This document shows positions 3,347 to 45,359 of a DNA stretch of 46,327 bases, piece after piece. A program made the translations under genes and the position numbers. Below the pieces are notes generated by a model that made no database searches, was not told the DNA's origin, and saw nothing but the letters and a program-made list of their open reading frames with translations. The stretch is from a virus, in the IMG/VR virus record IMGVR_UViG_3300020152_000031, positions 1 through 46,327 of that record. One strand, written 5' to 3'. Numbering within the stretch: position 1 is the stretch's first letter; every line of letters begins with the position of its first letter.

Positions 3347-3355
3347 TGTGGATAA
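3347..3355 (-). promoter_or_regulatory. DnaA-box-identical 9-mer (TTATCCACA on the minus strand) in the divergent region 3289-3392
   Basis: The exact string ctgtggataac is present. It lies upstream of, and co-oriented with, 2965..3288. A TTGACT hexamer lies 9 nt downstream of it on the minus strand. Confidence 0.6.
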
Positions 3356-3392
3356 CGGAAATGGCCCAACTAAGCCGTGATATATTTGCTTT

Positions 3393-3797
3393 ATGCAAAA
3401 GCTCGTTGTCTTCAAAGTGAAATGTCAGTACTGCCCAGAGATGGTAGAGCGAGCTCGTACCGACCGACCCGCAACCTGCTTCGGGTGTAAGACACAGCAC
3501 AAGCGGGAGCGCGACGAAAAGCGGAAGGCCGACCGCAAACGGCTTGCGGCAAAACGTCCGATGCCTAAGCTCCCGGCCGAACTACCTCCACGACCTGACC
3601 CTGTCGCGCTAAGGAAGCGCCGCGAGGAGCAAATCATCGCGTACCTCATTGACGGCAAGACCTACACTGAAATCAGCCGCCTGCTCAACCCGCGCATCAA
3701 CTCCAGCTACGTCTCAAAACTGGTCCAGGACATCGAGAAACGAGAAAACATCAAGCTCCCGCGTAACACCGCACGGCGCAATAACTACTACCAGTAG
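3393..3797 (+). CDS. Zn-ribbon plus C-terminal HTH DNA-binding protein (LuxR / sigma region-4-like), a candidate transcription regulator
   Basis: CQYC...CFGC near the N-terminus, a basic linker, and then IIAYLIDGKTYTEISRLLNPRINSSYVSKLV. TATATT-N6-ATG lies immediately upstream, giving a leaderless layout. Confidence 0.55.
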   Translation: MQKLVVFKVKCQYCPEMVERARTDRPATCFGCKTQHKRERDEKRKADRKRLAAKRPMPKLPAELPPRPDPVALRKRREEQIIAYLIDGKTYTEISRLLNPRINSSYVSKLVQDIEKRENIKLPRNTARRNNYYQ

Positions 3798-3798
3798 G

Positions 3799-3807
3799 TT
3801 ATCCACA
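3799..3807 (+). promoter_or_regulatory. DnaA-box-identical 9-mer TTATCCACA, 1 nt after the stop of 3393..3797 and overlapping the -35 position of the 3842 promoter
   Basis: The sequence reads tagGTTATCCACAGGggg. TAGAGT lies at 3830-3835, followed by 6 nt and then the ATG at 3842. Confidence 0.6.
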
Positions 3808-3841
3808 GGGGGTTCGAGCGACCAGGTGCTAGAGTGAAAAA

Positions 3842-4156
3842 ATGAGCACACGTGTCGAAGGTCCAGTCTCAATTGGAAGCCTCTTTGCAGGCTACACGTT
3901 GCCGCAGCCAACAGAGAAAAAGCGTACTAGCGAACGAACAGAGCTAGTGCGCTATTTCTTTGAGCATGCAGCACGTGACTGGGCCGGACGACGCCCGCTC
4001 TCTCCCGGGTTCATCGGGATGAAGCTCTCGCACTTGTCTGTAACGGACCTGTACGCGTTCAAGAGCATGTGCGAGGACCGCGTGCGCTCGGGCTACTCCT
4101 GGAGCAAGTACTTCTGGGGAAGCCTGAAGGAGCACGAGTGGGACCAGAAGTTCTGA
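3842..4156 (+). CDS. hypothetical protein
   Basis: 104-aa ORF with a leaderless-type promoter (TAGAGT-N6-ATG). Confidence 0.55.
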   Translation: MSTRVEGPVSIGSLFAGYTLPQPTEKKRTSERTELVRYFFEHAARDWAGRRPLSPGFIGMKLSHLSVTDLYAFKSMCEDRVRSGYSWSKYFWGSLKEHEWDQKF

Positions 4157-4493
4157 AGGACGGGTAGATAACTCCGCGTTTGCGGATGAGTGAGGGAATA
4201 TCTAATACCTCGCGCCCGTCCTCCAGCACTGCTGGACGCTGTAGGGGGCTAAGTCCTGTGAACAGCGCAAAAAAGTCACGGGAGCTGTCGTCGTCTGTCT
4301 ATCATCAGACCAAAACTCAGCGGGAGCGCGACAGTATGCAACTCTTTCTCTCTGTGTGGGGGGAAAGGGGGGCATACTCAAAATCTAGCAAGAGCACGTG
4401 TTATATAAAGCTCTTTGAAAGTAAAAAAGAGAATAGGGGATAACAAAACCGTTCATAGAGAACGTGATGCTAAAGTGAAGATATGTAGCACGT

Positions 4494-4883
4494 ATGCACA
4501 CCTCTTCTCTTCCTAAGCGGATAGTGAAACTCATTCGTCAGACTGGAGCTGCCATGGTGTGTGTCTATTGCGAGGAGCAGCTCAACGATAAAAATGTTTC
4601 CCGCGACCATCTCATTCCGCAGTGTCGAGGGGGAAACCGTATCAAGCAAAAGCTCAACGTCGTCCTTGCATGTCGCAAATGTAACAGCATCAAGGGTAAC
4701 CTCGTTTCTGTGCGCGAGCTTGCCCATGTTCGAGCGCACTACGGATTCCAGAGGAAGAAGTACGCAGAACGCCGCCGCATGATTCTCGAGCGAGCAGAAC
4801 AGCTCATACACGAGCGCGGCCTCGACGTTTACATCACGCCCATTTACACACCTACCGGCCAACTCTCCCTTTCCCTTGCATGA
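4494..4883 (+). CDS. HNH endonuclease
   Basis: CVYCEEQL...VSRDHLIPQCRGGN...VLACRKCNSIKGN shows the HNH beta-beta-alpha-metal Cys/His/Asn pattern. Confidence 0.8.
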   Translation: MHTSSLPKRIVKLIRQTGAAMVCVYCEEQLNDKNVSRDHLIPQCRGGNRIKQKLNVVLACRKCNSIKGNLVSVRELAHVRAHYGFQRKKYAERRRMILERAEQLIHERGLDVYITPIYTPTGQLSLSLA

Positions 4884-5869: not shown

Positions 5870-5886
5870 AATTGAAAGGTTAGGGG

Positions 5887-6183
5887 CTAAACGAGGGTCC
5901 AGGAGCCATCCCACGGACGACCATTGAGGAACCACTCGAAGTTACGCTGCGCTACTGAGACACCCGGGATACCGTTCAAGCGCTCCTTGGTGGTGTTGCT
6001 TGACCAGCCGCCGTTGCTCACACGAAGTCCGTTGCTGTCCCGGCGCGCAATAGCGTTTCCGTGAAGGAACAAGGTCACCGCTCCCGTATCTTCGCTCACC
6101 AACACCTCGGTGTTGCTGCTGCGGAAGTCGTACCCTCCCATAAACGCTGCTACTGCTTCTCGTGTGATTTTTCTCATAGGCAT
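5887..6183 (-). CDS. hypothetical protein
   Basis: 98-aa ORF, the first gene behind the promoter at 6212-6266. Confidence 0.6.
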   Translation of the reverse strand: MPMRKITREAVAAFMGGYDFRSSNTEVLVSEDTGAVTLFLHGNAIARRDSNGLRVSNGGWSSNTTKERLNGIPGVSVAQRNFEWFLNGRPWDGSWTLV

Positions 6184-6211
6184 TGTGTTTAGTTACTTGT
6201 CTTACTCTTAT

Positions 6212-6266
6212 ACTATACACTATGGCTATAGTTGATGCAATAGCTATAGGTACAGGGTGTGGATAA
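6212..6266 (-). promoter_or_regulatory. Early promoter: box TTATCCACA (6258-6266), N17, TTGCAT (6235-6240), N17, TATAGT (6212-6217)
   Basis: The hexamers and spacings were counted directly. The block atagtgTATAGTATAAGAGTA is repeated at 6900-6920. Confidence 0.6.
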
Positions 6267-6269
6267 CTC

Positions 6270-6878
6270 TTAGAGCTCCGCAATTCCCTTTAGAAGCGCG
6301 ATGATTCCACGCACTCGCTCCTCAGGAACATCCAGTCTGAAGCTCACCTGGTACGTTTCGTCGCTGTTTATGTCCAGGGTTATGTTCCGGCTCGAGTAGC
6401 GGTCACCAAACCCAAGCTCAGTACGCATCTCTGTAAGCCGTTCACGGCGTGCTCGTGAGCGCTCTGCTTCAGTCTGCCGGGTGGCACGCATCGCTATCAA
6501 CCGCTCTGCATGCTCACGTAGCGCGGCCAGCACTCGGTCCATGTCGATACGCTGGTTTGCTCGTGAGGAAATCCAGTCACCGCCGTATCCGATACGTACA
6601 CGAGTGAATATCTGTCGTGTGCTTCCTGCCCAACGGATGGTTGAGCTCACACTGAAGGCGCTCTCCATGCCGTTGCGCACTTCTTCAGGGAGACCGCTTG
6701 CGGCTATCGCGTCGCTCACCAAGCGACGCACGATGGTTCGATGAGCAGGACGCGTGAAGTCTCGGTACTCTTCAGGTGTAGGGTCGATGGTGGGGTTCGC
6801 CTCGTCAAGAGCCGCAACGGTCTCTTCGAGTTCCTCGCTTACTTCTTCACTTGCTTCTGGGGTTCTTGCTGGTCGCAT
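6270..6878 (-). CDS. hypothetical protein
   Basis: 202-aa ORF whose stop codon lies 3 nt from the box at 6258-6266. Confidence 0.6.
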   Translation of the reverse strand: MRPARTPEASEEVSEELEETVAALDEANPTIDPTPEEYRDFTRPAHRTIVRRLVSDAIAASGLPEEVRNGMESAFSVSSTIRWAGSTRQIFTRVRIGYGGDWISSRANQRIDMDRVLAALREHAERLIAMRATRQTEAERSRARRERLTEMRTELGFGDRYSSRNITLDINSDETYQVSFRLDVPEERVRGIIALLKGIAEL

Positions 6879-6907
6879 ATTGTGTTTGGCGTTACTGATA
6901 CTCTTAT

Positions 6908-6962
6908 ACTATACACTATCTACCTAACTATGACTATAGTGTTGTGCACAACCTGTGGATAA
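6908..6962 (-). promoter_or_regulatory. Early promoter: box TTATCCACA (6954-6962), N17, TAGTCA (6931-6936), N17, TATAGT (6908-6913)
   Basis: Counted directly. The box abuts the TAG stop at 6963-6965. Confidence 0.55.
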
Positions 6963-7076
6963 CTACGCATCCTCAAACTCAGGCAGGTCATCCTCTCGGA
7001 ACAGTTGCCAGGTCGTGAGGACTATTGCCCCTATCACGATGCCAAGCAGCACGAGGAGGTCGAGGGTACTAGGCAT
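6963..7076 (-). CDS. small membrane protein, 37 aa, below the ORF-track cutoff
   Basis: Hand translation gives MPSTLDLLVLLGIVIGAIVLTTWQLFREDDLPEFEDA. Its ATG overlaps the end of 7069..7566. Confidence 0.4.
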   Translation of the reverse strand: MPSTLDLLVLLGIVIGAIVLTTWQLFREDDLPEFEDA

Positions 7077-7566
7077 ACTCGTAGACGCTCTCGCCGTTAG
7101 AGAAGGTGCCAAGGCGGATGGCGCGCTTGCAGTGCTCGTGTAGCACGTTCTCGATACCCGCGCGCATGCGACTTCGTACCATCTCGAGCTCCGGTGTCTC
7201 TGGTACCGGCTCGTATGTGTTGTCGTACTCCGCTTCGTCGATGACGTAATCCACGTTCAGCCCCGAGTAGTAGCCGCTTCGCATGATGACCCGGCCTCGG
7301 ATGGTTATGTCATCCTCACTCAGAACGCCCGGCACGTTGTGCTTGGTGTACTCGAGCTTGAGGAAGACAAGGCCCGGGTAGTTGCGCTCGTCGTCGTATC
7401 CCTCGAACTCGTACACGTCGATGCTCTCGTCGTTTACGAACTCTTGCATAACATCAGTGACGATGGCCTCGCGCACCATCTCCGCGTCCATCTCTTCAAA
7501 GTGCTCCTCGTCTGAGCCTGGGACGATGAAGAGTTCGTTGCTGTACATAAAGTTTGAGGTTGACAT
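7069..7566 (-). CDS. strongly acidic hypothetical protein, first gene of the leftward early transcript
   Basis: 165-aa ORF that is visibly rich in D/E (SDEEHFEEMDAEM, EFEGYDDER, DEAEYDNTYEPVPETPELE). Confidence 0.6.
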   Translation of the reverse strand: MSTSNFMYSNELFIVPGSDEEHFEEMDAEMVREAIVTDVMQEFVNDESIDVYEFEGYDDERNYPGLVFLKLEYTKHNVPGVLSEDDITIRGRVIMRSGYYSGLNVDYVIDEAEYDNTYEPVPETPELEMVRSRMRAGIENVLHEHCKRAIRLGTFSNGESVYEYA

Positions 7567-7595
7567 AATTGTGTTTGGTTATCTCCTATACTCTT

Positions 7596-7654
7596 ATCCT
7601 ATCACTATAGGTATAACTATGCAAGTAGCTATGGGGATAAGTACCTGTGGATAA
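7596..7654 (-). promoter_or_regulatory. Early promoter: box TTATCCACA (7646-7654), N21, TTGCAT (7619-7624), N17, TAGGAT (7596-7601). A second, 1-mismatch box (tggggataa) lies at 7632-7640.
   Basis: Counted directly. It sits in the divergent region between the minus early block and the plus block. Confidence 0.6.
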
Positions 7655-7711
7655 CCAAATCCAGTAAGTACGCTATACTGTATAGGTAACAGGGTAACCA
7701 TTTCAGCAGTT

Positions 7712-7861
7712 ATGCTCACCACTATCCTCATCGTCTTGCTCGTCCTCTGGGCCCTTGGCTTCGTTGGCGGCGCGACATTCGGCGGTTTGCTGCACTTGCT
7801 CCTCGTTGTGGCGGTCATCATCGTGCTCGTCCGTCTCATCCAGGGCAGGTCGCCGTTCTAG
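7712..7861 (+). CDS. small membrane protein resembling the lmo0937 family, 49 aa, below the ORF-track cutoff
   Basis: Hand translation gives MLTTILIVLLVLWALGFVGGATFGGLLHLLLVVAVIIVLVRLIQGRSPF. The pattern LLVLW.LGF..G...GGL.HLLLV.A....L.RLI.GR is typical of that family. Confidence 0.6.
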   Translation: MLTTILIVLLVLWALGFVGGATFGGLLHLLLVVAVIIVLVRLIQGRSPF

Positions 7862-10721: not shown

Positions 10722-12893
10722 ATGGCTAAAACGAAGGCCGCAGCCCCAAAAAAGCGCAGGGAAGGGAGTACTGCAAAGCGTGAGCTCACGATGCAGGACT
10801 ACTGGGACAGTCTCTCGAAGGAAGAGAAGGACTTTCAAATCGCTCTCTGTTCGCGTCTCCAGCAGATGCGTGATAACCGCGAGCGCGCGGTAAAGGAGTT
10901 CGATAACCTCACCTACTCGCAGCGCTACGAGATAAACAAGCAGGCAGACCTTGGCTACAACTCGCTTGTGGGAGACATCGACGAGCGCGACAAGGGCTTC
11001 AACATGCGCACCGGCGTTACGCGCCAGAAGGATACGAGCATCCTCTCGCACATCATGTCCTTTGAGTTTGAGGCGTCTATCGAGGCGTTCGACAAGCAGA
11101 ACCGCATCGTCGTGGAGCTCGGAGAGAACACGGCAGACCTTGTGAAGCGCTCTCGTGAAATCGAGCAGTGGAAAGACAAGGAGGTCAGCATCATCCGCGA
11201 GCTCATCGCGCAGGGTAACGTCTTCGTCGAGGAGGAGTACGTGCAGAAGTTCATGTTCGAGAAAGACAGCAAGAACGATGAAGGCAAGGAGTGGACCCCG
11301 GGACAGAAGATTACAGCCTTCAAGAAGGATGAAATGCCCCTCATCCGCGTACAGGAGGACTGTGAAGCGAACCTCATCCTCGGAAAGTACGTCTACCTCG
11401 CCTCTCTCACGCAGGAGGACATCCAGAAGCAGCCTATCGTCGCAACGTACCGCGAAATCTCAGGCGGTGAGTTCTCCCGTGTGTACGGTACCTGGGACCG
11501 TGCAGAGTACGTGCTCTCGACCATTCGCAAGGGTACGCGCTACCAGGACCAAATCAGCCAGGTCTTCAACGTAGGAGACACCAACACCGCGTCCTCATAC
11601 GGCGCGTGGGGCTCTCAGTACTTCTGGAACGTGGTCAACCCAGGGAAGAACGTGGGTATCGTGAAGATATACGAGCCGTTCTCTAACCGTCACATGGTCA
11701 TCGCTAACGGCGTGATGCTTCTTCCTATCGACTTCCCGCTCACCAAGGTCTCTCCCTCGGGCCTTATTCCGCTTGCTAAGGGAGACGCAGAGAAGATTCA
11801 GGGCTTTGCATACTCAAAGGGTATCCCGAGCAACACGTTCGTGGACGAGAAAATGTACGACTTCGTGTATCAGGCCATGGCGAAGAAGCTCATGCAGAGC
11901 GCAGAGCCTACCATCGCCAACAACACGGGCCGCGAGCTCCCGCGCAACTGGGCAAAGCCTGGCATGGCGTACCGTGGACTGCGTAAGAGCATGATAGAGC
12001 CGCTCCTACCAGACGAGGCGCGCATGATAGGCAACTCGGACGTCTCGTACTTCGAGATAGTGAAGGAAATCATCAACGACAAGTCAGTGGATGACACCTT
12101 CAGCGGTGGAGACATCAACGAGGAGACCGCTACCGTCTACCTTGAGCGCCAGAAGAACACCATCGGTAAGCTCTTCCAGGTCATCGACGGGTACAAGAGC
12201 CTTCAGCGCCAGCTTGTGCGCCTACGCATCGCCAACATCTACGCAAACTGGACGCGTCATGAGAACGCCATCATCACCAAGATGGTAGAGGAGGTCGTAG
12301 ACGGCATCCCTAAGTTCTCAGAGAAGCGTGACGTCGAGAAGCGGTACCGTCAGGAGACCATCCGCACCAAAATCTCTAACGAGAACCAGGAGGGACTGAA
12401 GATTATCCGCTTCCATGACGTGGACGCGTCAAGCCTTCCTGCTCTTGGTAAGCATGTGGAGGAGGAGGACGACCTTACCGACCTCTTCGGCGTGCCTGTG
12501 CGTATCGCGTACCTGCATGCGCCTTCCCTCTCACGCCTCTTTGACTGGTCGTATCGCATCGAAATCATCCCACGCGACACCAACAGCTCAACCGCAGAGA
12601 TGCTCGCGTACCTTGACGCTAAGCAGCGTGTGGCAAACCTCTTTGGTCCAGAGGTACTCAACCCGGATTACACTCTTCAGCGTGTGTCTGAGTTCATGAA
12701 GGAGGACCCGACCAAGGCGTACAACATCGGAGAGCAGGCAGAGAAGGACGCTATGATGGAGCAGATGGCCGCAGCAGCCGCTGCAGGAGGCGCACCAGCA
12801 GGCCCAGAGGGTACGAACCCTAAGCAGATTCAGAGCCCTATCAGCCAGGCAGCAAACGCCATGCGCCCGGACCTCACTAACACGATGCAGTAG
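10722..12893 (+). CDS. portal protein (putative)
   Basis: 723-aa ORF immediately after TerL. The call rests on size and position only. Confidence 0.65.
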   Translation: MAKTKAAAPKKRREGSTAKRELTMQDYWDSLSKEEKDFQIALCSRLQQMRDNRERAVKEFDNLTYSQRYEINKQADLGYNSLVGDIDERDKGFNMRTGVTRQKDTSILSHIMSFEFEASIEAFDKQNRIVVELGENTADLVKRSREIEQWKDKEVSIIRELIAQGNVFVEEEYVQKFMFEKDSKNDEGKEWTPGQKITAFKKDEMPLIRVQEDCEANLILGKYVYLASLTQEDIQKQPIVATYREISGGEFSRVYGTWDRAEYVLSTIRKGTRYQDQISQVFNVGDTNTASSYGAWGSQYFWNVVNPGKNVGIVKIYEPFSNRHMVIANGVMLLPIDFPLTKVSPSGLIPLAKGDAEKIQGFAYSKGIPSNTFVDEKMYDFVYQAMAKKLMQSAEPTIANNTGRELPRNWAKPGMAYRGLRKSMIEPLLPDEARMIGNSDVSYFEIVKEIINDKSVDDTFSGGDINEETATVYLERQKNTIGKLFQVIDGYKSLQRQLVRLRIANIYANWTRHENAIITKMVEEVVDGIPKFSEKRDVEKRYRQETIRTKISNENQEGLKIIRFHDVDASSLPALGKHVEEEDDLTDLFGVPVRIAYLHAPSLSRLFDWSYRIEIIPRDTNSSTAEMLAYLDAKQRVANLFGPEVLNPDYTLQRVSEFMKEDPTKAYNIGEQAEKDAMMEQMAAAAAAGGAPAGPEGTNPKQIQSPISQAANAMRPDLTNTMQ

Positions 12894-12895: not shown

Positions 12896-13174
12896 ATGGA
12901 ACACGCATACAAGCCAAAACTCCTCAAACTTGACCAGAACCAGCAGGACATGGTCGACAAGTACGCCCTCGTGACCGATACGGAGACGGGTAACTTGCTC
13001 GTGGACCACTTGCGCACGCAGCTCATCAACGATGCACTCTTCGGAGCAGAGGGTATGGAGCCGGTAGAGATAACCGACGAGCGCTTCCGAGGCTTGCTTG
13101 ATGGTTTGCAGATATTCTGGAACTACGTACACGAGCGTGCGGAGCTCATGCGCAACGCAAACCTACAACCATAG
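12896..13174 (+). CDS. hypothetical protein
   Basis: 92-aa ORF that starts 2 nt after the portal stop. Its TAG stop abuts the box at 13175. Confidence 0.55.
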   Translation: MEHAYKPKLLKLDQNQQDMVDKYALVTDTETGNLLVDHLRTQLINDALFGAEGMEPVEITDERFRGLLDGLQIFWNYVHERAELMRNANLQP

Positions 13175-13230
13175 TTATCCACAGTACTGTGGGTATTGTG
13201 TGGTTGACAGTTAGCCCATAGAATGGGGAC
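13175..13230 (+). promoter_or_regulatory. Box TTATCCACA (13175-13183), N12, TTGTGT (13196-13201), N17, TAGAAT (13219-13224), N6, ATG. This is a leaderless promoter for 13231.
   Basis: Counted directly from the sequence. Confidence 0.55.
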
Positions 13231-35766: not shown

Positions 35767-35788
35767 CGTTTGGCACTATAATTACCCT

Positions 35789-36352
35789 ATGGCATACCGC
35801 TCTCTCGCCCAGCGAGGCATCCAGGCAGGCCCTCAGAGCTCCAAAATGGGCCTTAGCGGCTCTGTAGAGGACGTAATGAAGGGAATCGCTTATGTGGAGA
35901 CACGAGGCGCTCCTGACGCATATTCAAAGAAAGGGGTCGTGGTCAGCAAGGGCATGTACGCCGGAGACCGCGCGCTCGGCAAATACCAGGTCATGGGGAA
36001 GAACGTAGGACCCTGGACCAAGCAGTATCTGGGTGTCGAGATGACCCCGGAGCAGTTTATTGCAAACCCAGAAGCGCAGGAGAAACTGGCCCGTGCCCGC
36101 ATGAGCGAGCTGTTGCAGCAGTACGGCACCCCAGAAGACGTCGCCTCGGTCTGGTTTACCGGTAGGCCGCTTGCTAAGGCCGGTGGCTCGCCTCAAGACG
36201 ATACTGGTACCAGCAACAATGAGTACCAGGAGCTATTCAAAATCGGCATGGCAGGTCAGGGTGGCGCGGGCTCACAGGTGCGCCCAGCTATCGCAACCGC
36301 ACGTGGCGGCGGCGGATATATCCCTCTTGCTCAGCGCGGATACACCGCTTAG
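35789..36352 (+). CDS. lytic transglycosylase (SLT domain)
   Basis: GIAYVETRGAPDAYS...ALGKYQVM follows the E-S/T...GxxQ catalytic pattern of SLT family enzymes. TATAAT-N6-ATG lies upstream. Confidence 0.65.
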   Translation: MAYRSLAQRGIQAGPQSSKMGLSGSVEDVMKGIAYVETRGAPDAYSKKGVVVSKGMYAGDRALGKYQVMGKNVGPWTKQYLGVEMTPEQFIANPEAQEKLARARMSELLQQYGTPEDVASVWFTGRPLAKAGGSPQDDTGTSNNEYQELFKIGMAGQGGAGSQVRPAIATARGGGGYIPLAQRGYTA

Positions 36353-36771
36353 GGCTTCAAGGATGGTTGGAGGATGGTGAGGCACATGCCATTGGCGCAG
36401 CACACCATCGCATCTCCTATCGTCTCTGCTACCACGAAGACCCGGTTGAACTCTTCCGAGAAGTACTCATCGCCTGGGTAGTAGATTTTCACACCGTTGC
36501 GCTCCTTGAGATAAAAGTCTCGGGCATCGAACCATAGTACCGGAGTTTTTATGAGACCGGCTTCACCCATGACGACGGTGCGGCGGTACGGTATCCACTC
36601 AAGCTCGTTTTTTATACCGACCTTAGGAGAGTTGAACCCGAACAGCACGCGATTCATGTTGTCGATGAAGATTTGGCCTTCATACTCCTGCTCGTCCTTC
36701 TCGTAAACGAACACAGCTTTGTCCCCATGACGGGGTCGAGGGTGAGTGCGTCCATTAGTGAGGCTATCCAT
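36349..36771 (-). CDS. hypothetical protein, a lone reverse-strand gene inside the lysis region
   Basis: Trimmed to the ATG (MDSLTNGRTH...). CATAAT-N6-ATG and a degenerate box lie upstream. Confidence 0.5.
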   Translation of the reverse strand: MDSLTNGRTHPRPRHGDKAVFVYEKDEQEYEGQIFIDNMNRVLFGFNSPKVGIKNELEWIPYRRTVVMGEAGLIKTPVLWFDARDFYLKERNGVKIYYPGDEYFSEEFNRVFVVAETIGDAMVCCANGMCLTILQPSLKP

Positions 36772-36814
36772 GCTGTAATTATGCACATAAGTCAAGATGT
36801 TGGAAATCCTGGAC

Positions 36815-36823
36815 TGTGGATAC
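36815..36823 (-). promoter_or_regulatory. 1-mismatch box (GTATCCACA on the minus strand), upstream of 36349..36771
   Basis: The string ctgtggatacc is present in the divergent gap 36772-36840. Confidence 0.4.
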
Positions 36824-38203: not shown

Positions 38204-38222
38204 GCGTTCCACGTGAAATGGC

Positions 38223-38252
38223 AACACCCCGGCGCTATGTCCGGGGTGTTTT
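38223..38252. terminator. intrinsic terminator with a 10-bp stem at the end of the plus-strand late block
   Basis: aacaccccgg (38223-38232), an 8-nt loop, ccggggtgtt (38241-38250), then tt. Confidence 0.7.
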
Positions 38253-38382
38253 GCTTGGTACCACTGGGGGTTGGGGGATGAAGAAAATCCTTTTGCTGTA
38301 TGTTGAGCTGACAGCGTATGGCTGGGTACCTGGAGAGGCCACTATCAGTATAGGGGGAAAGTACAGGCCCCAAATAGGGACC

Positions 38383-38402
38383 TGTGGATAAGTTGTGGAT
38401 AA
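38383..38402 (-). promoter_or_regulatory. tandem pair of exact DnaA-box 9-mers spaced 11 bp start to start
   Basis: cCTGTGGATAAgtTGTGGATAAcc contains boxes at 38383-38391 and 38394-38402, inside the 500-nt low-coding gap 38253-38752. Confidence 0.6.
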
Positions 38403-38449: not shown

Positions 38450-38575
38450 TCAGATTTTGCGAGGCGCGACCTGCGGACGCGGGAACGGCAGGTTGAGTTG
38501 CCGGAAACGCGGGCCGTGGTAGCAGACCCCTTTCAGGGTGTCCTTGCCGCAGGTAGTGCAGTGGAACAAGCGCAT
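38450..38575 (-). CDS. possible 41-aa Cys-rich peptide
   Basis: AGGGAGG, 5 nt, then ATG. This is the only canonical SD-ATG pair I noticed in the window. The peptide is MRLFHCTTCGKDTLKGVCYHGPRFRQLNLPFPRPQVAPRKI. Confidence 0.25.
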   Translation of the reverse strand: MRLFHCTTCGKDTLKGVCYHGPRFRQLNLPFPRPQVAPRKI

Positions 38576-38752
38576 GCAGTCCTCCCTTGCTATTCCTATT
38601 TTAGTGTAACTCCTTGTTTGTCGCGTGTGATTCTCCACGGTAAAAACCCAGAGCCAGAAGCTCCTCGTCGGTGTGCTCGCATATCCACATCTGCACGTAC
38701 CTTCCAGTTACGAAGTGCCCCTTCTCACATTCGTTGTATGTGTGAGCCACGG

Positions 38753-38820
38753 CACCCCGCCTAGGAATTGAACCTAGCAAGCTCGGTTTTGGAGACCAAG
38801 CCGTACCCAGTACGCGAGGT
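38753..38820 (-). tRNA. tRNA-Trp(CCA)-like element with a truncated D-arm
   Basis: Acceptor ACCTCGC/GCGGGGT, anticodon arm TTGGT-CTCCAAA-ACCGA, and T-arm CTAGG-TTCAATT-CCTAG. Only 14 nt lie between the acceptor and anticodon stems, so the total is 68 nt. Confidence 0.45.
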
Positions 38821-38821
38821 T

Positions 38822-38896
38822 TGGCAGCCACGGCAGGATTCGGACCTGCGACCCTCCGGGTAACAACCGGGCGCTCTACCGCTGAGCTACATGGCT
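38822..38896 (-). tRNA. tRNA-Asn(GTT) with an encoded CCA
   Basis: Cloverleaf folded by hand: AGCCATG TA GCTC-AGCGGTA-GAGC G CCCGG-TTGTTAC-CCGGA GGGTC GCAGG-TCCGAAT-CCTGC CGTGGCT G CCA. Confidence 0.8.
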
Positions 38897-39061
38897 ATAT
38901 TACGAAAGTAACTATCCCGTTAGGGAGACTGAATCGCTTGGCGGAGCCTATACACCACGCGTCCGTGATGGAAGATACCAACGATTCAGTTCCCTAGGCG
39001 CAGTGTTTCCACACTCCAGGGGAGAATTACTCCCCCTAACGAGACAGTACTTGTATTCTTG
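38897..39061 (-). ncRNA. structured spacer RNA of unknown function between the tmRNA and tRNA-Asn
   Basis: There is a long imperfect stem TAGGGAACTGAATCGTTGG / CCAAGCGATTCAGTCTCCCTA and an inner hairpin CATCAC-ggacgc-GTGGTG. A 5' hairpin GGGGAG-taatt-CTCCCC can alternatively pair with CTCCCTAACG (as CGTTAGGGGGAG). Confidence 0.35.
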
Positions 39062-39425
39062 TGGACCTGGGGGGAATCGAACCCCCGTCCCAACACCAGC
39101 CCTACAACCACTCTACATAGCATATCTGACGTACCGCGTCAGCTCGTGTTGCTTGCCGAGCAAGCTGCCCTGCCCATCGTTTGACGATGAAGGCGGGCGG
39201 GTACACCTCCACCAACTGCTAGTGATGCCGCAGTCTGGGATACCAGCAGTATCTGTCCCAGGCCACGCCGTTAGGCTCGCGCGAAAGCAGGGGTTCCGAG
39301 GGAACCAACTGTCGCGAAGAACGGAGAGACGATGCTCTTTGCGTTTGTTTGTGCGACCATCTGTATGTCGCCTCAGTAGCTATGCAGGCTGTAAGGTTCT
39401 AGTGAGGTCAAAGCCAGTCAGGCCC
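39062..39425 (-). ncRNA. ssrA: tmRNA (SsrA)
   Basis: The 5' end GGGCCTGACTGGCTTTGAC pairs with the 3' end CAGGTCC-A, including a G3:U70 wobble. The T-arm is GGGGG-TTCGATT-CCCCC. The candidate tag ORF runs from GCA (39354) after GUC to TAA (39273-39271) and reads AQTNAKSIVSPFFATVGSLGTPAFARA. Confidence 0.8.
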
Positions 39426-39426
39426 G

Positions 39427-39498
39427 TTGCGCAGACCGGAATCGAACCGGTTATCTCCTGGTTATGAGCCAGGCGAGTTACCATCCCTCACCCGCGCT
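39427..39498 (-). tRNA. tRNA-Met(CAT) with initiator-like features
   Basis: AGCGCGG GT GAGG-GATGGTA-ACTC G CCTGG-CTCATAA-CCAGG AGATA ACCGG-TTCGATT-CCGGT CTGCGCA A. It has an A1:A72 mismatch, an A11:U24 pair, and G30-C40 / G31-C39 pairs. Confidence 0.75.
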
Positions 39499-39536
39499 TT
39501 TTTTAGTATACCATCGCACTTTTTACGTTATCCACA
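39499..39536 (-). promoter_or_regulatory. internal promoter candidate for the tRNA-Met / tmRNA transcript (TATACT at 39505-39510, 6 nt before the tRNA 5' end), with an exact box at 39528-39536 in the opposite orientation
   Basis: The minus strand reads TGTGGATAAC gtaaaaagtgcgatgg TATACT aaaaaa followed by the tRNA. Confidence 0.4.
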
Positions 39537-39540
39537 TCTG

Positions 39541-39611
39541 CTGGGACGCAGGGATTCGGACCCCGATTCAGCGGTCCAGAACCGCTTGTCCTACCATTAG
39601 ACGACATCCCA
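39541..39611 (-). tRNA. tRNA-Gln(CTG)
   Basis: TGGGATG TC GTCT-AATGGTA-GGAC A AGCGG-TTCTGGA-CCGCT GAAT CGGGG-TCCGAAT-CCCTG CGTCCCA G. It has a U1:A72 pair, as in bacterial tRNA-Gln. Confidence 0.8.
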
Positions 39612-41132: not shown

Positions 41133-41294
41133 TTACTTATTAGTTTTCGCCGCTGCTTCCAATTCCTCAACTACCTTTCCGATGCTCTTGCCTTCTTTGG
41201 CCGCCCGAATCTTGAGCCTACGGTGAACCTTTGAAGGTACTTTCACCATCTTCTCGTCTGGTTGCCTCTCGGCTGTCTTACTGTTTGCTGTCAT
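41133..41294 (-). CDS. ribbon-helix-helix (Arc/MetJ/CopG-like) DNA-binding protein, 53 aa, below the ORF-track cutoff
   Basis: Hand translation gives MTANSKTAERQPDEKMVKVPSKVHRRLKIRAAKEGKSIGKVVEELEAAAKTNK. V.VP..VH.RLK..A...G.S matches the RHH beta-strand and helix pattern. Confidence 0.6.
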   Translation of the reverse strand: MTANSKTAERQPDEKMVKVPSKVHRRLKIRAAKEGKSIGKVVEELEAAAKTNK

Positions 41295-42258: not shown

Positions 42259-42921
42259 CTAATTCTCTTTGATGAATATGCTGGTTGCAGCATCGTAAAT
42301 AATGCGGCTCGGGATAGAGCGGTTCTGCATCAGAATCTTCTTGACGTTGTTCGCCATGAGACCTGCACAGATGTTTGCAGTGTACGCCGTGAAGCGTGCG
42401 CCGCACGGGTCCTCATCCCCAGCCGGTGGAATCTGAGCAAGCCATGCCTCTGCGTTAGGGAAGTAATACACCTCCACCTGCTCTGCGCCCACGCGCCCAT
42501 CCACAATCGGCACTTCTATGCCTTTCTCAATAAGAAGCTCTGCAATCGCGCGGCGTGCATCCAGGCTATCAACTGCCGACACGATGATGTCGTACGTGCT
42601 GCCCTCCTTGAGCTCAAACATTTCAGCGTAGACCGCGTGTGCGTTGTCAGGCTGAATGTGTAAGAGTTGGTCGAGCACCGCATCTACCTTGTTACGTCCG
42701 ATGTCAGATGCGCCATAGGTCTGTGTTGCGAGGTTATGCTCCTCGACCGTGTCGTGGTCGAAAAGTGTCATGGGTACCTGCATGCGTGCCAAGGTGTGTG
42801 CAAGGTGGGAACCGATGGTTCCGACACCTACCACTGCGACCTTCTTGTTCTGGTACTGTGACGGGTCGTAAATCATTGTGTGGCGCATGCCGTTGAGAGG
42901 TTTGACGAGAGAAGTAGACAT
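42259..42921 (-). CDS. ThiF/MoeB/E1-like adenylating (ubiquitin-activating-like) enzyme
   Basis: Trimmed to the ATG with the conserved leader (aaacacaatATG; MSTSLVKPL...). The motifs are KKVAVVGVGTIGSHLA, LFDHDTVEEHNLATQ and VSAVDSLDARR. Confidence 0.75.
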   Translation of the reverse strand: MSTSLVKPLNGMRHTMIYDPSQYQNKKVAVVGVGTIGSHLAHTLARMQVPMTLFDHDTVEEHNLATQTYGASDIGRNKVDAVLDQLLHIQPDNAHAVYAEMFELKEGSTYDIIVSAVDSLDARRAIAELLIEKGIEVPIVDGRVGAEQVEVYYFPNAEAWLAQIPPAGDEDPCGARFTAYTANICAGLMANNVKKILMQNRSIPSRIIYDAATSIFIKEN

Positions 42922-42932
42922 ATTGTGTTTGG

Positions 42933-43958
42933 TTAGTTGATTCCGTAAGTAAGTTCTGTCAGGCGCGCCTGTGCATCGACGAGTTGCTCCTTTAGCCATG
43001 AGTACTCATCGTCATCAGTGGCGTTGGTCTGCTCGTAAATGCGCATCTGTTCAGTGATGCCTGCGATGTAGCGACGTAGCTCGTTTGGGTCTGACACGGC
43101 AGACAGGTCATACGTATCAACGATTACGTCGTCGTTTGCCTCGTCGCTTTCGTTTGCCGTGTCGTCGAGTTTTCCCATGCGTGAGAGCTCATCCCAAGTA
43201 ATGTTGTAGCTCTTGTACCCGCTCTGGTAGATGATGTAGGGGTCTCCGTCTTCATCCATCGCGACCACACCACCCATGTGCTTTATAGAGGTCAGTTTGT
43301 GCCCAGGAGGAACCTCAATAGAATCAAGGTCATACCCGCTGTAAGCGCCAAACCCAAGATTAGCCTGCGGCTGGTAGGAGCTGGGAGTGTAGCGAAAGCT
43401 CTTTTGCTCTACCTTTGCCTTCACCTCCTCGCGGATGTCATCAGGAATGATGAGCGGCTTATCTTCTTCCTCCACCTCGCGATGACACGTAGGACAGAGC
43501 TCTGGCTCCGGCTCCTCGACCACGATTTCCATATCCTCGTGCGTAAGACGGAACGGGCGGTACGTATCCATACGAGCCTCGCGGTCGCGCCTCTTGTTGA
43601 CCACGAGCGACACAAGCCAGTCGAACTCGTCAGAGCCGTCGATGGTGCCGGTGTCAGTGCCAGAGAAGAACGCCTGCATGTCGTTGTGCGAGTGCCACCA
43701 GAGACGCCACTTGGAAGGAGACTTGCCCGCTTTGATAAGGTCCATCTGGAACTTTGCGAGTGCCTCACTCGAGAGGTCTGCGGTACCGCCGGTCACCTTC
43801 TGTTCGTAGATGGCAATTTCCGTGACGGTTATCTCGCCGGTCTCCTGGTTGTACTCGACGGCACCCATGCCAGCGATTTCAGAAGGGACAGACTGCACAT
43901 ACTGGTTGAGGCGCTCCTCGATGTGCTTTGGGATAATGAGTTTTGGTTTGGTAAGCAT
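42933..43958 (-). CDS. JAB/JAMM (MPN+) metalloprotease with a roughly 200-aa C-terminal extension
   Basis: PSEIAGMG is the upstream Glu motif, and WWHSHNDMQAFFSGTD matches HxHx7Sx2D. Confidence 0.8.
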   Translation of the reverse strand: MLTKPKLIIPKHIEERLNQYVQSVPSEIAGMGAVEYNQETGEITVTEIAIYEQKVTGGTADLSSEALAKFQMDLIKAGKSPSKWRLWWHSHNDMQAFFSGTDTGTIDGSDEFDWLVSLVVNKRRDREARMDTYRPFRLTHEDMEIVVEEPEPELCPTCHREVEEEDKPLIIPDDIREEVKAKVEQKSFRYTPSSYQPQANLGFGAYSGYDLDSIEVPPGHKLTSIKHMGGVVAMDEDGDPYIIYQSGYKSYNITWDELSRMGKLDDTANESDEANDDVIVDTYDLSAVSDPNELRRYIAGITEQMRIYEQTNATDDDEYSWLKEQLVDAQARLTELTYGIN

Positions 43959-43976
43959 AATTGTATTTGTTAGTGA

Positions 43977-44942
43977 TTAGAAGCTCTCGTCGTCGTAGCC
44001 GTAGTCCCCAGCGTCATCGCTGCGACCTTCTGACCCGTTGAAGAACATACTGACTGATATACCCAGCTTGGTAGCTACGTTGCGCACGTCCTGCTGGTAC
44101 TGCGTGCGTATCTCTTCGAGCGCATCGCGGTCGGCTACCTTCTTGAAGATGACCTCGTTGATAGGCGCAAAGCCAAGTGTCGATGCCCACTGGAGGCGGT
44201 GACGGTAGGCGCTTGCCCAGCCAGAGCTCTGGAGGTACAGCGAGACTGCGGACAGAAGTTCCGGGATGCCCTTGTTCGCCTCAGCGCGGAACCCGTCAGC
44301 GTACCCACCAAGGCAAAGGTCGTCCCACTCGAAAGCGTCGCCGTTGCAACCCCAGTGTGCGTTCAGATGATGGTACAGTCCGGTCTCAGCGATGAAGTCC
44401 TTGAACTGGTCCTCATCAGCAAAGCGGATAGCCACTGCTCGTACGTTCTTGTCGTACCACATATCCTTGTTGGCGATTCCCGCAAGGCTGATACGAATGA
44501 AGTACTGCGGCATCTCTGCGTATGTGACCTCATCGAGCATGAACTCCTGGCGGCGTCCGTCTGATGTGTACGCGATGCCAGAGTAGAAAGGTGTCTTGAG
44601 CTGACCCTTGCGCGTGCGTACGGTCATGTACTCGCCCTGCACCGCAACAGTGTCGACCCATGGCATGCTTGCCACTCGTTCGAGGACGGCGCGCATGTCA
44701 TCTGCGGTCATCTCTCCTTCGGGCATCTTTGCTAGTTGCTCAAGCAAAGTATTCTTGCGCTCGGTGTAGCGCACTATCTCCTTCTGCAACGCCTCGATGG
44801 TAAGGTCCGTGTTCGCAATATGCGTCTCCACGTCCTTGCGCTCGCCGGAACGGGTATCGAGATACGCGAGCATGTTCTTCACTGCTGTATCCGATACCTT
44901 GATGGCTGCCTGCTTCACTTCTTTACCGTCTGGTTTTCTCAT
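43977..44942 (-). CDS. coiled-coil N-terminus plus an E2-like (UBC-like) Cys domain (putative)
   Basis: Beta-rich YFIRISL / AVAIRFA is followed by YHHLNAHWG...DDLCLGGYADGF, which resembles an HPN-like flap plus the L-C-L of E2 active sites. Confidence 0.4.
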   Translation of the reverse strand: MRKPDGKEVKQAAIKVSDTAVKNMLAYLDTRSGERKDVETHIANTDLTIEALQKEIVRYTERKNTLLEQLAKMPEGEMTADDMRAVLERVASMPWVDTVAVQGEYMTVRTRKGQLKTPFYSGIAYTSDGRRQEFMLDEVTYAEMPQYFIRISLAGIANKDMWYDKNVRAVAIRFADEDQFKDFIAETGLYHHLNAHWGCNGDAFEWDDLCLGGYADGFRAEANKGIPELLSAVSLYLQSSGWASAYRHRLQWASTLGFAPINEVIFKKVADRDALEEIRTQYQQDVRNVATKLGISVSMFFNGSEGRSDDAGDYGYDDESF

Positions 44943-45011
44943 TGTGTTTTCCAGTTATGACTAATCGAACCGATGGGAGCCCCCACGAGGGTGAGAGCTC
45001 CTACGGGCCTA

Positions 45012-45248
45012 CTAGCGGCTACCTGCCTGCTTAGGCGTGGTGAGCGCGAGCACGTCACCGTCATCAAGGAGGTTGTCCATCTCAGCGCGTACGCCGGAGA
45101 CGAAAATCTCGGTGCGGTCAGAGACCGGAACACCTGCCTTCTCGAGAGCCTCACGAACGGTTGAATCAACCGGGAGCGAGACCTCAATTTCCTCGGAACC
45201 GAGGCGAGAGACGATAACCTTGATAGATGATTCTGGGTTGCTACGCAT
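45012..45248 (-). CDS. ThiS/MoaD-like beta-grasp ubiquitin-like protein (putative), ending ...PKQAGSR
   Basis: 78 aa. IKVIVSRLGSEEIEVSLPVDSTVREALEKAGVP...IFVSGVRAEMDNLLDDGDVLAL matches the ThiS/MoaD pattern. It is the first gene of the cassette. Confidence 0.5.
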   Translation of the reverse strand: MRSNPESSIKVIVSRLGSEEIEVSLPVDSTVREALEKAGVPVSDRTEIFVSGVRAEMDNLLDDGDVLALTTPKQAGSR

Positions 45249-45278
45249 AATTGAATTGTGTTAGCTGTCTAATGGGAT

Positions 45279-45288
45279 GTGATATCAC
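45279..45288. promoter_or_regulatory. perfect 10-bp palindrome GTGATATCAC in the leader of the Ubl cassette, an operator candidate
   Basis: Read directly. It lies about 13-22 nt downstream of the -10 hexamer. Confidence 0.4.
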
Positions 45289-45300
45289 TCACATACAGGT

Positions 45301-45359
45301 ATACTATCACAACTTGTATACCTTCACAAGCGGGGTGTGTATAACCTACCTGTGGATAA
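45301..45359 (-). promoter_or_regulatory. Promoter of the Ubl cassette: box TTATCCACA (45351-45359), N21, TTGTGA (45324-45329), N17, TAGTAT (45301-45306). A 1-mismatch box lies at 45336-45344.
   Basis: Counted directly. The box abuts the TAG stop of 45360..45596. Confidence 0.6.

Follow-up and report, generated by a model that had tools for sequence, protein, structure and literature searches.

Boxes and predicted promoters in the window

The window analysed here, the whole 46,327-nucleotide stretch of phage DNA, contains ten exact copies of the DnaA box TTATCCACA, at 3347 (minus strand), 3799 (plus), 6258 (minus), 6954 (minus), 7646 (minus), 13175 (plus), 38383 (minus), 38394 (minus), 39528 (plus) and 45351 (minus). 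A sequence-only reading of this DNA had listed these ten copies and all were recovered; dinucleotide shuffles of the window, run as a control, contain 0.28 copies on average and two at most. Exact boxes thus reach a density of 0.22 per kb, and TTATCCACA ranks second in over-representation among the 9-mers of the window, behind AAACACAAT. Similarly, the 11-mers TTATCCACAGG and GTTATCCACAG are each present six times (0.01-0.02 expected), and sites with at most one mismatch number 23 (6.2 expected).

The exact copies had been described as exclusively intergenic, and all ten do lie in the non-coding ~6.6% of the genome (according to our gene model; P = 1.5e-12). Of the 21 intergenic regions that are 40 nt or longer, nine contain boxes. 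The near-matches located within genes (5089, 13790, 25224) each carry one mismatch. The near-boxes reported at 7632 (TTATCCCCA), 36815 (GTATCCACA) and 45336 (TTATACACA) were found as described, while the one at 41340 is merely a half-match with two mismatches and was left out of the count. Exact copies are flanked by G at position -1 in nine of ten cases and by G at +10 in seven of ten. A second box (at least 7/9 matches) lies 2-6 bp away from six of the ten exact boxes, against a background of 4%, and the other four have no recognisable partner. The features, with promoters predicted from the sequence, are as follows.

3347..3355, minus strand: exact box (GTTATCCACAGG) preceding the predicted leftward promoter of gene 2965-3288, its end 29 nt from the leftward -10; reverse-oriented, 25 nt ahead of the -10 of rightward gene 3393-3797
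3312..3337, minus strand: predicted leftward promoter, TTGACT (3332-3337) and extended -10 TGgTATACT (hexamer 3312-3317)
3381..3386, plus strand: extended -10 TGaTATATT, 6 nt ahead of ATG 3393
3799..3807, plus strand: exact box, 1 nt past the stop of 3393-3797; 22 nt to TGcTAGAGT (3830-3835), a -10 lying 6 nt ahead of ATG 3842
6258..6266, minus strand: exact box, 3 nt past the stop of 6270-6878, heading the early module of gene 5887-6183
6189..6240, minus strand: predicted promoter and leader, TTGCAT (6235-6240), 17 nt, TATAGT (6212-6217), leader end AACACAAT
6954..6962, minus strand: exact box immediately past a TAG stop, heading the early module of gene 6270-6878
6943..6951, minus strand: partner near-box TTGTGCACA (7/9), same orientation, 2 bp downstream of box 6954
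6886..6936, minus strand: predicted promoter and leader, TAGTCA, 17 nt, TATAGT (6908-6913), leader with AACACAAT
7646..7654, minus strand: exact box at the head of the early module of gene 7069-7566; reverse-oriented, it overlaps the -35 position of the putative promoter (TATACT 7674-7679) of rightward ORF 7703-7852
7632..7640, minus strand: partner near-box TTATCCCCA, same orientation, 5 bp downstream of box 7646
7575..7624, minus strand: predicted promoter and leader, TTGCAT (7619-7624), 17 nt, TGaTAGGAT (hexamer 7596-7601), leader with AACACAAT
13175..13183, plus strand: exact box immediately past the stop of 12896-13174; 35 nt to TAGAAT (13219-13224), a -10 lying 6 nt ahead of ATG 13231
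13188..13196, plus strand: inverted near-box TGTGGGTAT (7/9), 4 bp downstream of box 13175
36779..36787, plus strand: one-mismatch box TTATGCACA, mismatch at a DnaA-tolerated position; 41 nt to TACAAT, itself 6 nt ahead of ATG 36841 (by our count)
36815..36823, minus strand: one-mismatch box GTATCCACA, 31 nt ahead of CATAAT of gene 36349-36777
38383..38402, minus strand: tandem exact boxes separated by 2 bp (starts 11 bp apart), 30 nt ahead of TATACT (38347-38352), which has no annotated downstream gene
39528..39536, plus strand: exact box in the gap from tRNA-Gln to tRNA-Met, oriented against the minus-strand tRNA/tmRNA unit; overlap with the -35 position of a predicted internal promoter (TGGATA, 18 nt, TGgTATACT)
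45351..45359, minus strand: exact box immediately past the stop of 45360-45596, heading the operon led by ubiquitin-like gene 45012-45248
45336..45344, minus strand: partner near-box TTATACACA, 6 bp downstream of box 45351 and identical to E. coli oriC box R2
45262..45329, minus strand: predicted promoter and leader, TTGTGA (45324-45329), 17 nt, TGaTAGTAT (hexamer 45301-45306), leader with AACACAAT

Five box copies belong to a repeated early module, which reads GTTATCCACA(GG), -35/-10, AAACACAAT leader and ATG, and three blocks (box, -10 block and AAACACAAT leader) are conserved across the five early upstream regions. We reproduced the box-to--35 gaps previously reported (17 nt at 6258 and 6954, 21 nt at 7646 and 45351), as well as the 17-nt spacing from the -35 to a TAnnnT -10 at all four of these promoters. 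Their -35 hexamers are TTGCAT (6258), TAGTCA, which is poor (6954), TTGCAT (7646) and TTGTGA (45351). Leaderless transcription is probable for the zinc-ribbon/LuxR-HTH gene from its putative promoter at 3381..3386, and gene 36349-36777 is probably leaderless too. A plain sigma-70 consensus scan of the window found promoter-like sites no more commonly than in shuffles, and the window promoters are thus to be read as predictions.

The idea of a fixed box position stood only in part, as the distances from the boxes to the predicted -10s fall into classes of 22, 29-31, 35, 40-41 and 44 nt (22, 29, 30, 31, 35, 40, 40, 41, 44 and 44 nt), which do not share one helical phase. Likewise, nine of the ten boxes were thought to read toward the downstream unit; this holds for eight, and not for box 39528. 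The 38383/38394 pair reads along its own strand, with no annotated gene downstream.

Boxes in related phages

Across 107 related loci, we counted 54 boxes where 13 were expected. In the closest relative of the phage (L003, terminase 78% identical), a box directly follows the orthologue of gene 12896-13174, in the same syntenic place as box 13175. Two further relatives, L005 and L007 (~46% identical, GC 39%), have boxes heading transcription units. In distant relatives, which have only structural genes in common with the window, aGTTATCCACAg is located 9-10, 19-20 or 28 nt upstream of TTGACA-N17-TATAAT. When relatives and window are considered together, a sigma-70-like promoter lies downstream in the same orientation at 15 boxes and is divergent at four, and the box-to--35 gaps include 9, 9, 9, 10, 12, 17, 19, 19, 19, 19, 20, 20 and 28 nt. 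Among the grounds for abandoning its proposal, the sequence-only reading had named the case that related phages carry the motif within a longer repeat built on another core. We checked this: the core proved the same, and conservation of the flanks stops at G(-1) and G(+10). An unrelated locus (L139) provides a further example, with a homologue of early gene 7069-7566 (29% identical) preceded, ~94 nt upstream, by a forward box and a TTGCAT-17-TGaTAGCAT promoter; the same promoter is found in L202, with a gap exactly 10 bp shorter.

Survey across IMG/VR

The pattern GTTATCCACA-N6-34-TTGACA-N16-18-TATAAT, a forward box followed by a consensus promoter, was found at no fewer than 120 IMG/VR loci (at least 120; 102 non-redundant among the matches listed). 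Among these listed matches, box-to--35 gaps are non-uniform (chi-square p = 2e-17), with a sharp peak at 8-10 nt and smaller ones at 17-19, 25 and 28-30 nt. The mirror 10-mer used as a control yielded 16 loci (~7 independent by inspection). The DnaA box tolerates the degeneracy TTWTNCACA, in which position 5 may be any base and position 7 is essential. Beside consensus promoters, the mutant at invariant position 7 (GTTATCCTCA) was present at three loci and the variant at tolerated position 5 (GTTATACACA) at 24. Reverse-oriented boxes accompany consensus promoters at 108 loci, in a loose position. Perfect consensus promoters should require no activator, a point which we counted against DnaA acting at these promoters.

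Box-bearing loci contain further boxes at 0.23 per kb, versus 0.006 per kb in control loci, and in some of them 6-7 boxes form an origin-like array with a spacing of 11-12 bp. Their GC content ranges from 22% to 60%, which implies many different hosts. One-mismatch variants, including that at the DnaA-tolerated position, are scarcely enriched genome-wide, which makes the sequence under selection narrower than the classical TTWTNCACA.

Host DnaA as the candidate binder

The extended consensus GTTATCCACAG(G) has the same flanks as R1 and R4, the two strongest boxes of E. coli. These boxes, CTGTGGATAAC and GAGTTATCCACAGT, both occur in a 199-nt oriC segment for which 5425 of 5426 E. coli genomes have a match. 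The box-bearing phages have no protein family in common, the largest non-structural, non-replication family being present in 16 of 220 loci, and the early proteins of the window have no homologues among box-bearing relatives. As many hosts are implied and no phage binder is shared, only a deeply conserved host protein fits. A search for ORFs resembling DnaA domain IV found none. In E. coli, ChIP-seq indicates that DnaA binds boxes pairwise and that single boxes are seldom occupied in vivo (PMC11317965); the second boxes found 2-6 bp away in the window are consistent with such pairwise binding.

We therefore favour, at slightly better than even confidence, the view that these boxes are high-affinity host-DnaA sites, built in by the phage as promoter-linked regulatory elements. 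The sequence data themselves show the statistics of the motif, where it lies, its conservation and spread among phages and the lack of a common phage-encoded binder; DnaA as the binder, the promoters as real and an effect on transcription are what we infer. The initial proposal of host-DnaA boxes tied to phage promoters gains comparative support (same core and G flanks in relatives, and the core in hundreds of unrelated IMG/VR contigs). Its fixed position resolves into several distance classes, and the support does not extend to the suggested link with DnaA-ATP status.

Alternative explanations

Titration, a phage binder, a roadblock and an origin are all weaker alternatives than host-DnaA promoter sites. 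The boxes might mainly constitute a datA-like sink, whose ten or more strong sites per genome, multiplied as the phage replicates, sequester DnaA and thereby stop initiation at oriC or free resources, promoter adjacency merely reflecting where non-coding DNA happens to be available. Perfect boxes are indeed dense (0.22 per kb in the window, 0.23 per kb in the other box-bearing loci), enrichment is limited to the perfect, highest-affinity sequence, and DnaA titration by chromosomal boxes is established (PMC5835720; PMC11317965). However, a sink requires neither orientation toward the downstream unit, nor a sharp 8-10 nt gap to the -35, nor the keeping of a single box at one syntenic promoter, and 12 of the 21 intergenic regions that reach 40 nt are devoid of boxes. 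A datA-like locus is a compact cluster of about five boxes with an IHF site; the boxes of the window are dispersed over nine intergenic regions, and we consider titration an unlikely main role.

The motif could also be the operator of a phage DNA-binding protein, which we judge about as unlikely. Of the two candidates, 3393-3797 is flanked by boxes 3347 and 3799 and combines a zinc ribbon with a LuxR-type helix-turn-helix (its C-terminal part aligns weakly with that of RhlR, E 0.008), so that it is plausibly DNA-binding; the other, a 53-aa ribbon-helix-helix protein (41133-41294), matches the Omega repressor family below threshold (1e-5, 26 bits versus a 33.3-bit cut-off). Omega binds short asymmetric heptads, e.g. 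WATCACW. Yet the usual targets of LuxR-type and ribbon-helix-helix proteins are symmetric or repeated sites rather than one asymmetric 11-12-mer, and neither candidate resembles DnaA domain IV or has a homologue in the 107 related loci or the 220 box-bearing IMG/VR loci. Loci lacking such homologues have the identical 9-mer, flanks and promoter distances, and box-bearing phages share no protein family that could recognise a common operator. Recognition by 3393-3797, suggested in the sequence-only reading, is disfavoured, if still conceivable for this phage, because 3.3 Mb of DNA from box-bearing phages contains no homologue of the protein.

Five of the ten boxes (3799, 6258, 6954, 13175 and 45351) start 0-3 nt past a same-strand upstream stop, and intrinsic terminators were searched for in these five stop-box gaps and not found. 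Box-bound DnaA might act as a transcription roadblock that halts read-through from the gene upstream and insulates successive units, as at the E. coli asnC transcript; DnaA is documented to terminate transcription in an orientation-dependent way (Schaefer and Messer 1988, 1989, cited in PMC10950094). Against this, a co-directional ORF precedes only 27 of 104 IMG/VR forward modules (13% at random positions), and a roadblock does not require a fixed distance to the next -35; this role appears as doubtful as that of a phage operator.

DnaA boxes function in P1 oriR and in many plasmid origins. One or several DnaA-dependent origins, in a phage without recognisable initiator, helicase, primase or polymerase, nevertheless seem very improbable: although no replication protein was recognised among the 63 ORFs, the 38383/38394 tandem has the 2-bp spacing typical of origin arrays and some IMG/VR loci carry arrays of 6-7 boxes at 11-12 bp, the boxes of the window are spread over nine loci, mostly singly and without an adjacent AT-rich unwinding element (the largest cluster is the two-box tandem, and GC is 52-58% throughout), GC skew has no origin signature or switch, and promoter-linked boxes persist in L005, which has its own primase/helicase, and in L007, which has an O-type initiator.

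Comparison with known systems

DnaA-regulated promoters are known in E. coli (dnaA, nrdAB, mioC, rpoH, uvrB, polA, glpD), in the B. subtilis and Caulobacter regulons and in P. aeruginosa (gidA). As proposed for the window, a TTATCCACA-type box is located within or just upstream of a sigma-70 promoter; DnaA can activate or repress there, and paired boxes lie 2-3 bp apart (PMC8203912; PMC11317965; PMC13438810). The candidate sites described here differ in belonging to a phage genome and lying at many predicted promoters at once, as mostly single perfect boxes in preferred orientation and distances, a pattern that recurs in hundreds of uncultivated phages.

At lambda pR, the DnaA boxes lie downstream of the promoter. 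Stimulation of lambda pR/ori-lambda by DnaA ties a phage promoter to this host protein, for which a contact with the RNA polymerase beta subunit was proposed (PMC8203912). However, lambda has one such promoter, serving replication, whereas in the window boxes precede many predicted promoters and no O/P-type replication module is recognisable. T5-like phages also conserve TTATCCACA/TTATCCCCA boxes in non-coding DNA, often as close pairs, with eight DnaA boxes in the injection-stop (iss) region (bioRxiv 10.1101/866236), but these form one cluster within inverted repeats of the terminal repeat, and injection arrest rather than promoter control was proposed.

Sites for a host cell-cycle master regulator are similarly enriched in intergenic promoter regions in the case of CtrA in Alphaproteobacteria phages ('lytic deferment'), where they evolved independently in unrelated phages and binding and regulation were shown experimentally; the regulator and motif differ from ours, the sites are concentrated in one genome region, and a DnaA motif tested in those phages gave no signal (PMC9437464). 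Finally, datA, DARS, the B. subtilis clusters, P1 oriR and plasmid origins are non-coding DNA with several high-affinity DnaA boxes, as proposed for the window. These clusters are compact and have a defined geometry (for titration, nucleotide exchange or unwinding), whereas the boxes of the window are dispersed, one per predicted promoter.

Proposed mechanism and implications

If host DnaA is the binder, the main layout would be one perfect box aGTTATCCACAg upstream of a sigma-70-type promoter and reading toward it, in some cases followed after 2-6 bp by a second, weaker box. With the box centre at roughly -50 to -70, bound DnaA would adjoin the alpha-CTD or sigma region 4 of RNA polymerase and tune initiation. 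We tentatively favour activation at those early promoters of the phage whose -35 is weak. In three places (the promoters of gene 3393, of gene 7703 and of the tRNA-Met/tmRNA unit), an opposite-oriented box lies at or near the -35, and repression by DnaA would be expected there. Transcription of the early units and of some later ones would then follow how much DnaA the host contains or how active it is, and DnaA would serve as a readout of host replication and growth state. Wiring to DnaA and to host factors is already known, and the arrangement described here is new within that framework. The same layout recurs in hundreds of further uncultivated phages, which suggests that coupling of gene expression to host DnaA is common among phages.

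Exact DnaA boxes in the phage genome

The window holds a metagenomic phage genome that assembled as a circle of 46,200 bp (GC 55%); it is recorded as contig 39389 of run SRR7003767, and its first 127 nt recur at the end. Late genes (small and large terminase, putative portal, capsid and tail) run rightward from ~8.6 to 38.2 kb, and early genes, mostly leftward, flank this block on both sides. Against ~50,000 GenBank phages, megablast with 25 kb of the window returned no nucleotide match, and tblastn with the putative portal (ORF 10722-12893) no protein-level match. PDB sequence searches with four of the unknown ORFs, in quest of replication genes, gave no informative match. Two other gene groups were observed on the leftward strand.

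RNA cluster and conjugation module
38751-39611 (-): tRNA-Trp, tRNA-Asn, tmRNA, tRNA-Met and tRNA-Gln
39061-39425 (-): the tmRNA (Rfam, 56 bits), with a divergent tag
42259-45248 (-): ubiquitin-like conjugation module, under the box-promoter 45351
45012-45248 (-): Ubl protein of this module
within 42259-45248 (-): 321-aa unknown protein of this module
42933-43958 (-): JAB/Rpn11-like protein of this module
42259-42921 (-): ThiF/E1-like protein of this module

ThiF and JAB homologues are also encoded by one IMG/VR locus (L156).

The core of TTATCCACA is the canonical DnaA box. A sequence-only reading had placed ten exact copies of this 9-mer at 3347, 3799, 6258, 6954, 7646, 13175, 38383, 38394, 39528 and 45351, and had described them as strictly intergenic; both statements were borne out. 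Dinucleotide shuffles contain 0.28 copies on average and never more than 2, and the extended words GTTATCCACAG and TTATCCACAGG occur six times each, for 0.01-0.02 expected. The box ranks second among the over-represented 9-mers of the genome. Under our gene model, 6.6% of the window is non-coding, and this fraction holds all ten copies (P ~1e-12), which are distributed over 9 of the 21 intergenic regions that reach 40 nt or more. Four more intergenic copies carry one mismatch (7632, 36779, 36815 and 45336). The near copy proposed at 41340 was rejected, as it is a half-match with two mismatches. A second box (at least 7 of 9 matches) lies within 2-6 bp of six of the ten boxes, as compared with 4% at random positions, and weaker partners were located at 6943 and 13188; the other four boxes have no partner.

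Predicted box-promoter layout

All promoters described here for the window are predicted ones, and a scan of the window with the plain sigma-70 consensus detected promoter-like sites no more often than in shuffles. Five leftward early units (boxes 3347, 6258, 6954, 7646 and 45351) have a common layout: a box GTTATCCACA(GG), putative -35 and -10 hexamers 17 nt apart, and a short leader ending in AAACACAAT before the start codon. Their alignment contains exactly these three conserved blocks. The distance from box end to -10 hexamer is 29, 40, 40, 44 and 44 nt in the five units, 22, 35 and 30 nt for the remaining forward boxes (3799, 13175 and 38383, respectively), and, counted from the sequence, 31 and 41 nt for the one-mismatch boxes at 36815 and 36779. 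Because these distances span at least two helical phases, helical phasing from the window alone was rejected, and the phasing argument developed below relies on IMG/VR data. In five cases, the stop codon of the preceding gene lies 0-3 nt before the box start. At three places, a box in reverse orientation is found at or beside the -35 position of another promoter.

Promoters with a reverse-orientation box at or beside -35
extended -10 promoter of gene 3393
promoter of the small membrane ORF 7703-7852
internal promoter of the tRNA-Met/tmRNA unit

ORF 7703-7852 (+), which is absent from the public gene set, encodes 49 very hydrophobic residues (MLTTILIVLLVLWALGF...), and box 7646 overlaps the -35 position of its TATACT promoter. 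Between box and -10, three early promoters (6205-6250, 6900-6945 and 7590-7640, -) carry (C/T)ATAG units at ~6-nt intervals; these may represent -10-like hexamers that overlap one another, or a further array of protein-binding sites. Beyond the tandem boxes 38383/38394, a TATACT has no gene downstream (38215-38352, -). A transcript starting there would be ~100 nt long and end at a 10-bp GC-rich hairpin (38215-38250), which doubles as terminator of the rightward late operon; this RNA could be a small RNA.

Putative translation signals were also noted. No 9-mer of the genome is more strongly over-represented than AAACACAAT, and AACACAAT is present in eight copies, all on the minus strand and each followed after 0-7 nt by an early-gene start codon.

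Copies of AACACAAT
1156, 3294, 6189, 6886, 7575, 42929, 44948 and 45262 (-)

Both words may represent a translation signal independent of Shine-Dalgarno. A Shine-Dalgarno core precedes only 2 of the 60 window genes, while a TAnnnT hexamer lies 5-8 nt before the start codon in 14 of 60 (e.g., 3381-3395, 3830-3844, 13219-13233 and 35776-35791), suggesting that many mRNAs are leaderless and that the host translates such mRNAs well. Unlike nearly all other genes, a small CxxC-containing ORF (38450-38576, -) has a strong Shine-Dalgarno sequence, aagggaggactgcATG; a second AAGGAGG follows this ORF and precedes a 5-codon ORF.

Boxes in relatives of the phage

Searches with the large terminase identified short contigs of two close relatives, at 78% and 76% identity, as well as many contigs of 40-50 kb at ~45% identity. 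The closest relative (L003) carries two boxes in 11.6 kb, one of them directly behind the orthologue of gene 12896-13174, that is, at the position of window box 13175. In two loci at ~46% identity and 39% GC (L005 and L007), boxes head transcription units. Altogether, the 107 related loci (1.47 Mb) contain 54 exact boxes for 13 expected, the excess being mostly found in the nearer clade. Typically, aGTTATCCACAg precedes a near-consensus TTGACA-N17-TATAAT, most often with 9-10, 19-20 or 28 nt between box and -35. Such a promoter lies downstream in the same orientation for 15 boxes and is divergent for 4. The window and these relatives have only structural genes in common, and no homologue of the window's early or putative regulatory proteins was detected in the 107 loci.

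The terminase has its best MAG matches exclusively in Patescibacteria (Saccharibacteria and Peribacteria). One of them, a 40%-identical relative (L109 1-21593) on the 259-kb contig JBMORT010000009.1, is located beside the host gene secA and looks like an integrated prophage. These matches hint at the host range of the wider terminase family; as identity is only ~40%, they say little about the host of the window phage itself.

The box-promoter pattern across IMG/VR

We then scanned IMG/VR for GTTATCCACA-N6-34-TTGACA-N16-18-TATAAT. This pattern occurs in at least 120 loci, 102 of them non-redundant among the matches listed. With the same promoter pattern, a mirror 10-mer control yielded 16 loci (~7 independent), GTTATCCTCA, in which an invariant position is mutated, 3 loci, and GTTATACACA, in which a tolerated position is changed, 24 loci. 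Gaps among the matches listed depart strongly from a uniform distribution (chi-square p = 2e-17): the main peak lies at 8-10 nt, and lesser ones at 17-19, 25 and 28-30 nt. Reverse-orientation boxes beside a consensus promoter were found in 108 loci and are loosely positioned. Selected loci contain further boxes at 0.23 per kb, versus 0.006 per kb in control loci, and the extended logo reads a-a-A-G-TTATCCACA-G-n-t-t. When a degeneracy profile was tried as a DnaA fingerprint, one-mismatch variants proved barely enriched.

The selected loci range from 22% to 60% GC and comprise several phage types; the largest protein families among the 220 box-bearing loci are terminase (51), primase-helicase (25) and portal (22), and no small DNA-binding protein is common to them. 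Among cultured phages, those of Bacteroidota resemble the largest terminase cluster; Flavobacterium phage 11b, however, has no box, and this lead to cultured relatives was given up. Early gene 7069-7566 has a homologue at 29% identity in locus L139, there too with a forward box and a TTGCAT-17-TGaTAGCAT promoter ~94 nt upstream; the same promoter recurs in locus L202 with a gap exactly 10 bp shorter.

In a few contigs classed as 'viral', six or seven perfect boxes follow one another at 11-12 bp spacing; such arrays resemble origins, or possibly fragments of a bacterial oriC. The box collection is thus not uniform.

Arrays of perfect boxes
L134: 11875-11968
L228: 566-659
L330: 2716-2809
L212: 1683-1766
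L114: 5791-5921

The box-binding protein

To our knowledge, DnaA is the protein known for this box specificity. The G flanks of the box match E. coli oriC CTGTGGATAAC and GAGTTATCCACAGT, which are known as boxes R1 and R4 and which are chromosomal in 5425 of 5426 E. coli genomes. No DnaA-like domain was detected in the window, either by Pfam and PHROG scans of 63 ORFs or by phmmer with an approximate E. coli DnaA domain IV query, the phmmer search being a weak test. The sequence-only reading had offered two candidates, host DnaA and a phage protein such as 3393-3797. Protein 3393-3797 combines a zinc ribbon with a LuxR-type helix-turn-helix (weak RhlR match, E 0.008) and shows no similarity to DnaA domain IV. 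Binding by this protein, or by a 53-aa ribbon-helix-helix protein of the phage, is disfavoured, as both are absent from the other box-bearing phages searched. Host DnaA, by contrast, gains support from the comparative evidence: phages whose early genes are unrelated and whose base compositions differ widely use an identical asymmetric 11-12-mer, and a deeply conserved host protein accounts for this best. From these comparisons, we regard host DnaA as the probable binder.

Function of the boxes

On balance, we lean towards promoter regulation as the function of the boxes. A promoter-coupled role is suggested by their preferred orientation, by spacing classes that, in the large IMG/VR sample, are sharp and differ by about one helical turn, by the one-turn deletion between L139 and L202, and by the single box kept at a syntenic promoter. 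If bound around -50 to -70, DnaA would adjoin alpha-CTD and sigma region 4. DnaA both activates and represses transcription (PMC8203912; PMC11317965); activation would suit the window's early promoters, whose -35 hexamers are weak, and repression the boxes overlapping -35 positions. However, the distances in the window do not share a single phase, four boxes are unpartnered although single boxes are rarely occupied by E. coli DnaA in vivo (PMC11317965), and the weak enrichment of one-mismatch variants also counts against our preferred reading of DnaA acting at promoters.

Titration of DnaA is a weaker alternative: the density of perfect boxes agrees with it, but their geometry is left unexplained. 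A roadblock or insulator would account for boxes abutting the preceding stop codon, yet a co-directional ORF precedes only 26% of IMG/VR modules, and support for this role there is weak. A replication origin is unlikely: the boxes are dispersed, neither an AT-rich element nor a skew signal is present in the window, and boxes persist in relatives that encode replication genes of their own.

Significance of the proposed box-promoter module

Elements of this arrangement are known singly: DnaA as a transcription factor, including stimulation of lambda pR (PMC8203912), boxes in the T5 iss region (bioRxiv 10.1101/866236), origin or titration clusters, and CtrA sites in phage promoters (PMC9437464). 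Full-text searches on DnaA boxes in phages brought up no account of perfect boxes at fixed distances upstream of many phage promoters. The CtrA study sought a DnaA motif in alphaproteobacterial phages and obtained no signal (PMC9437464). The proposed box-promoter association is founded on strong sequence statistics. We tentatively suggest, as a possibility short of an even chance, that aaaaGTTATCCACAg followed after ~9, 19 or 29 nt by a -35 is a widespread, undescribed regulatory module, adopted independently by many unrelated phage lineages with hosts of very different GC, and that DnaA, as a universally conserved initiator of replication, would serve as a general phage transcription factor or as a sensor of the host's replication state. 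Such a module, short and portable, would be the DnaA counterpart of CtrA 'lytic deferment' (PMC9437464), potentially a pan-bacterial one. If confirmed, it would lend itself to studying the way in which DnaA activates or represses RNA polymerase, which the field has yet to settle (PMC11317965), and its sequence, irrespective of the host, would help to locate promoters and early regions in the genomes of uncultivated phages.

If phages routinely fix a top-affinity box upstream of their promoters, the initiation state of the host could gate phage expression, and possibly the timing of lysis: DnaA is found in almost all bacteria, and its activity follows growth and the replication cycle.
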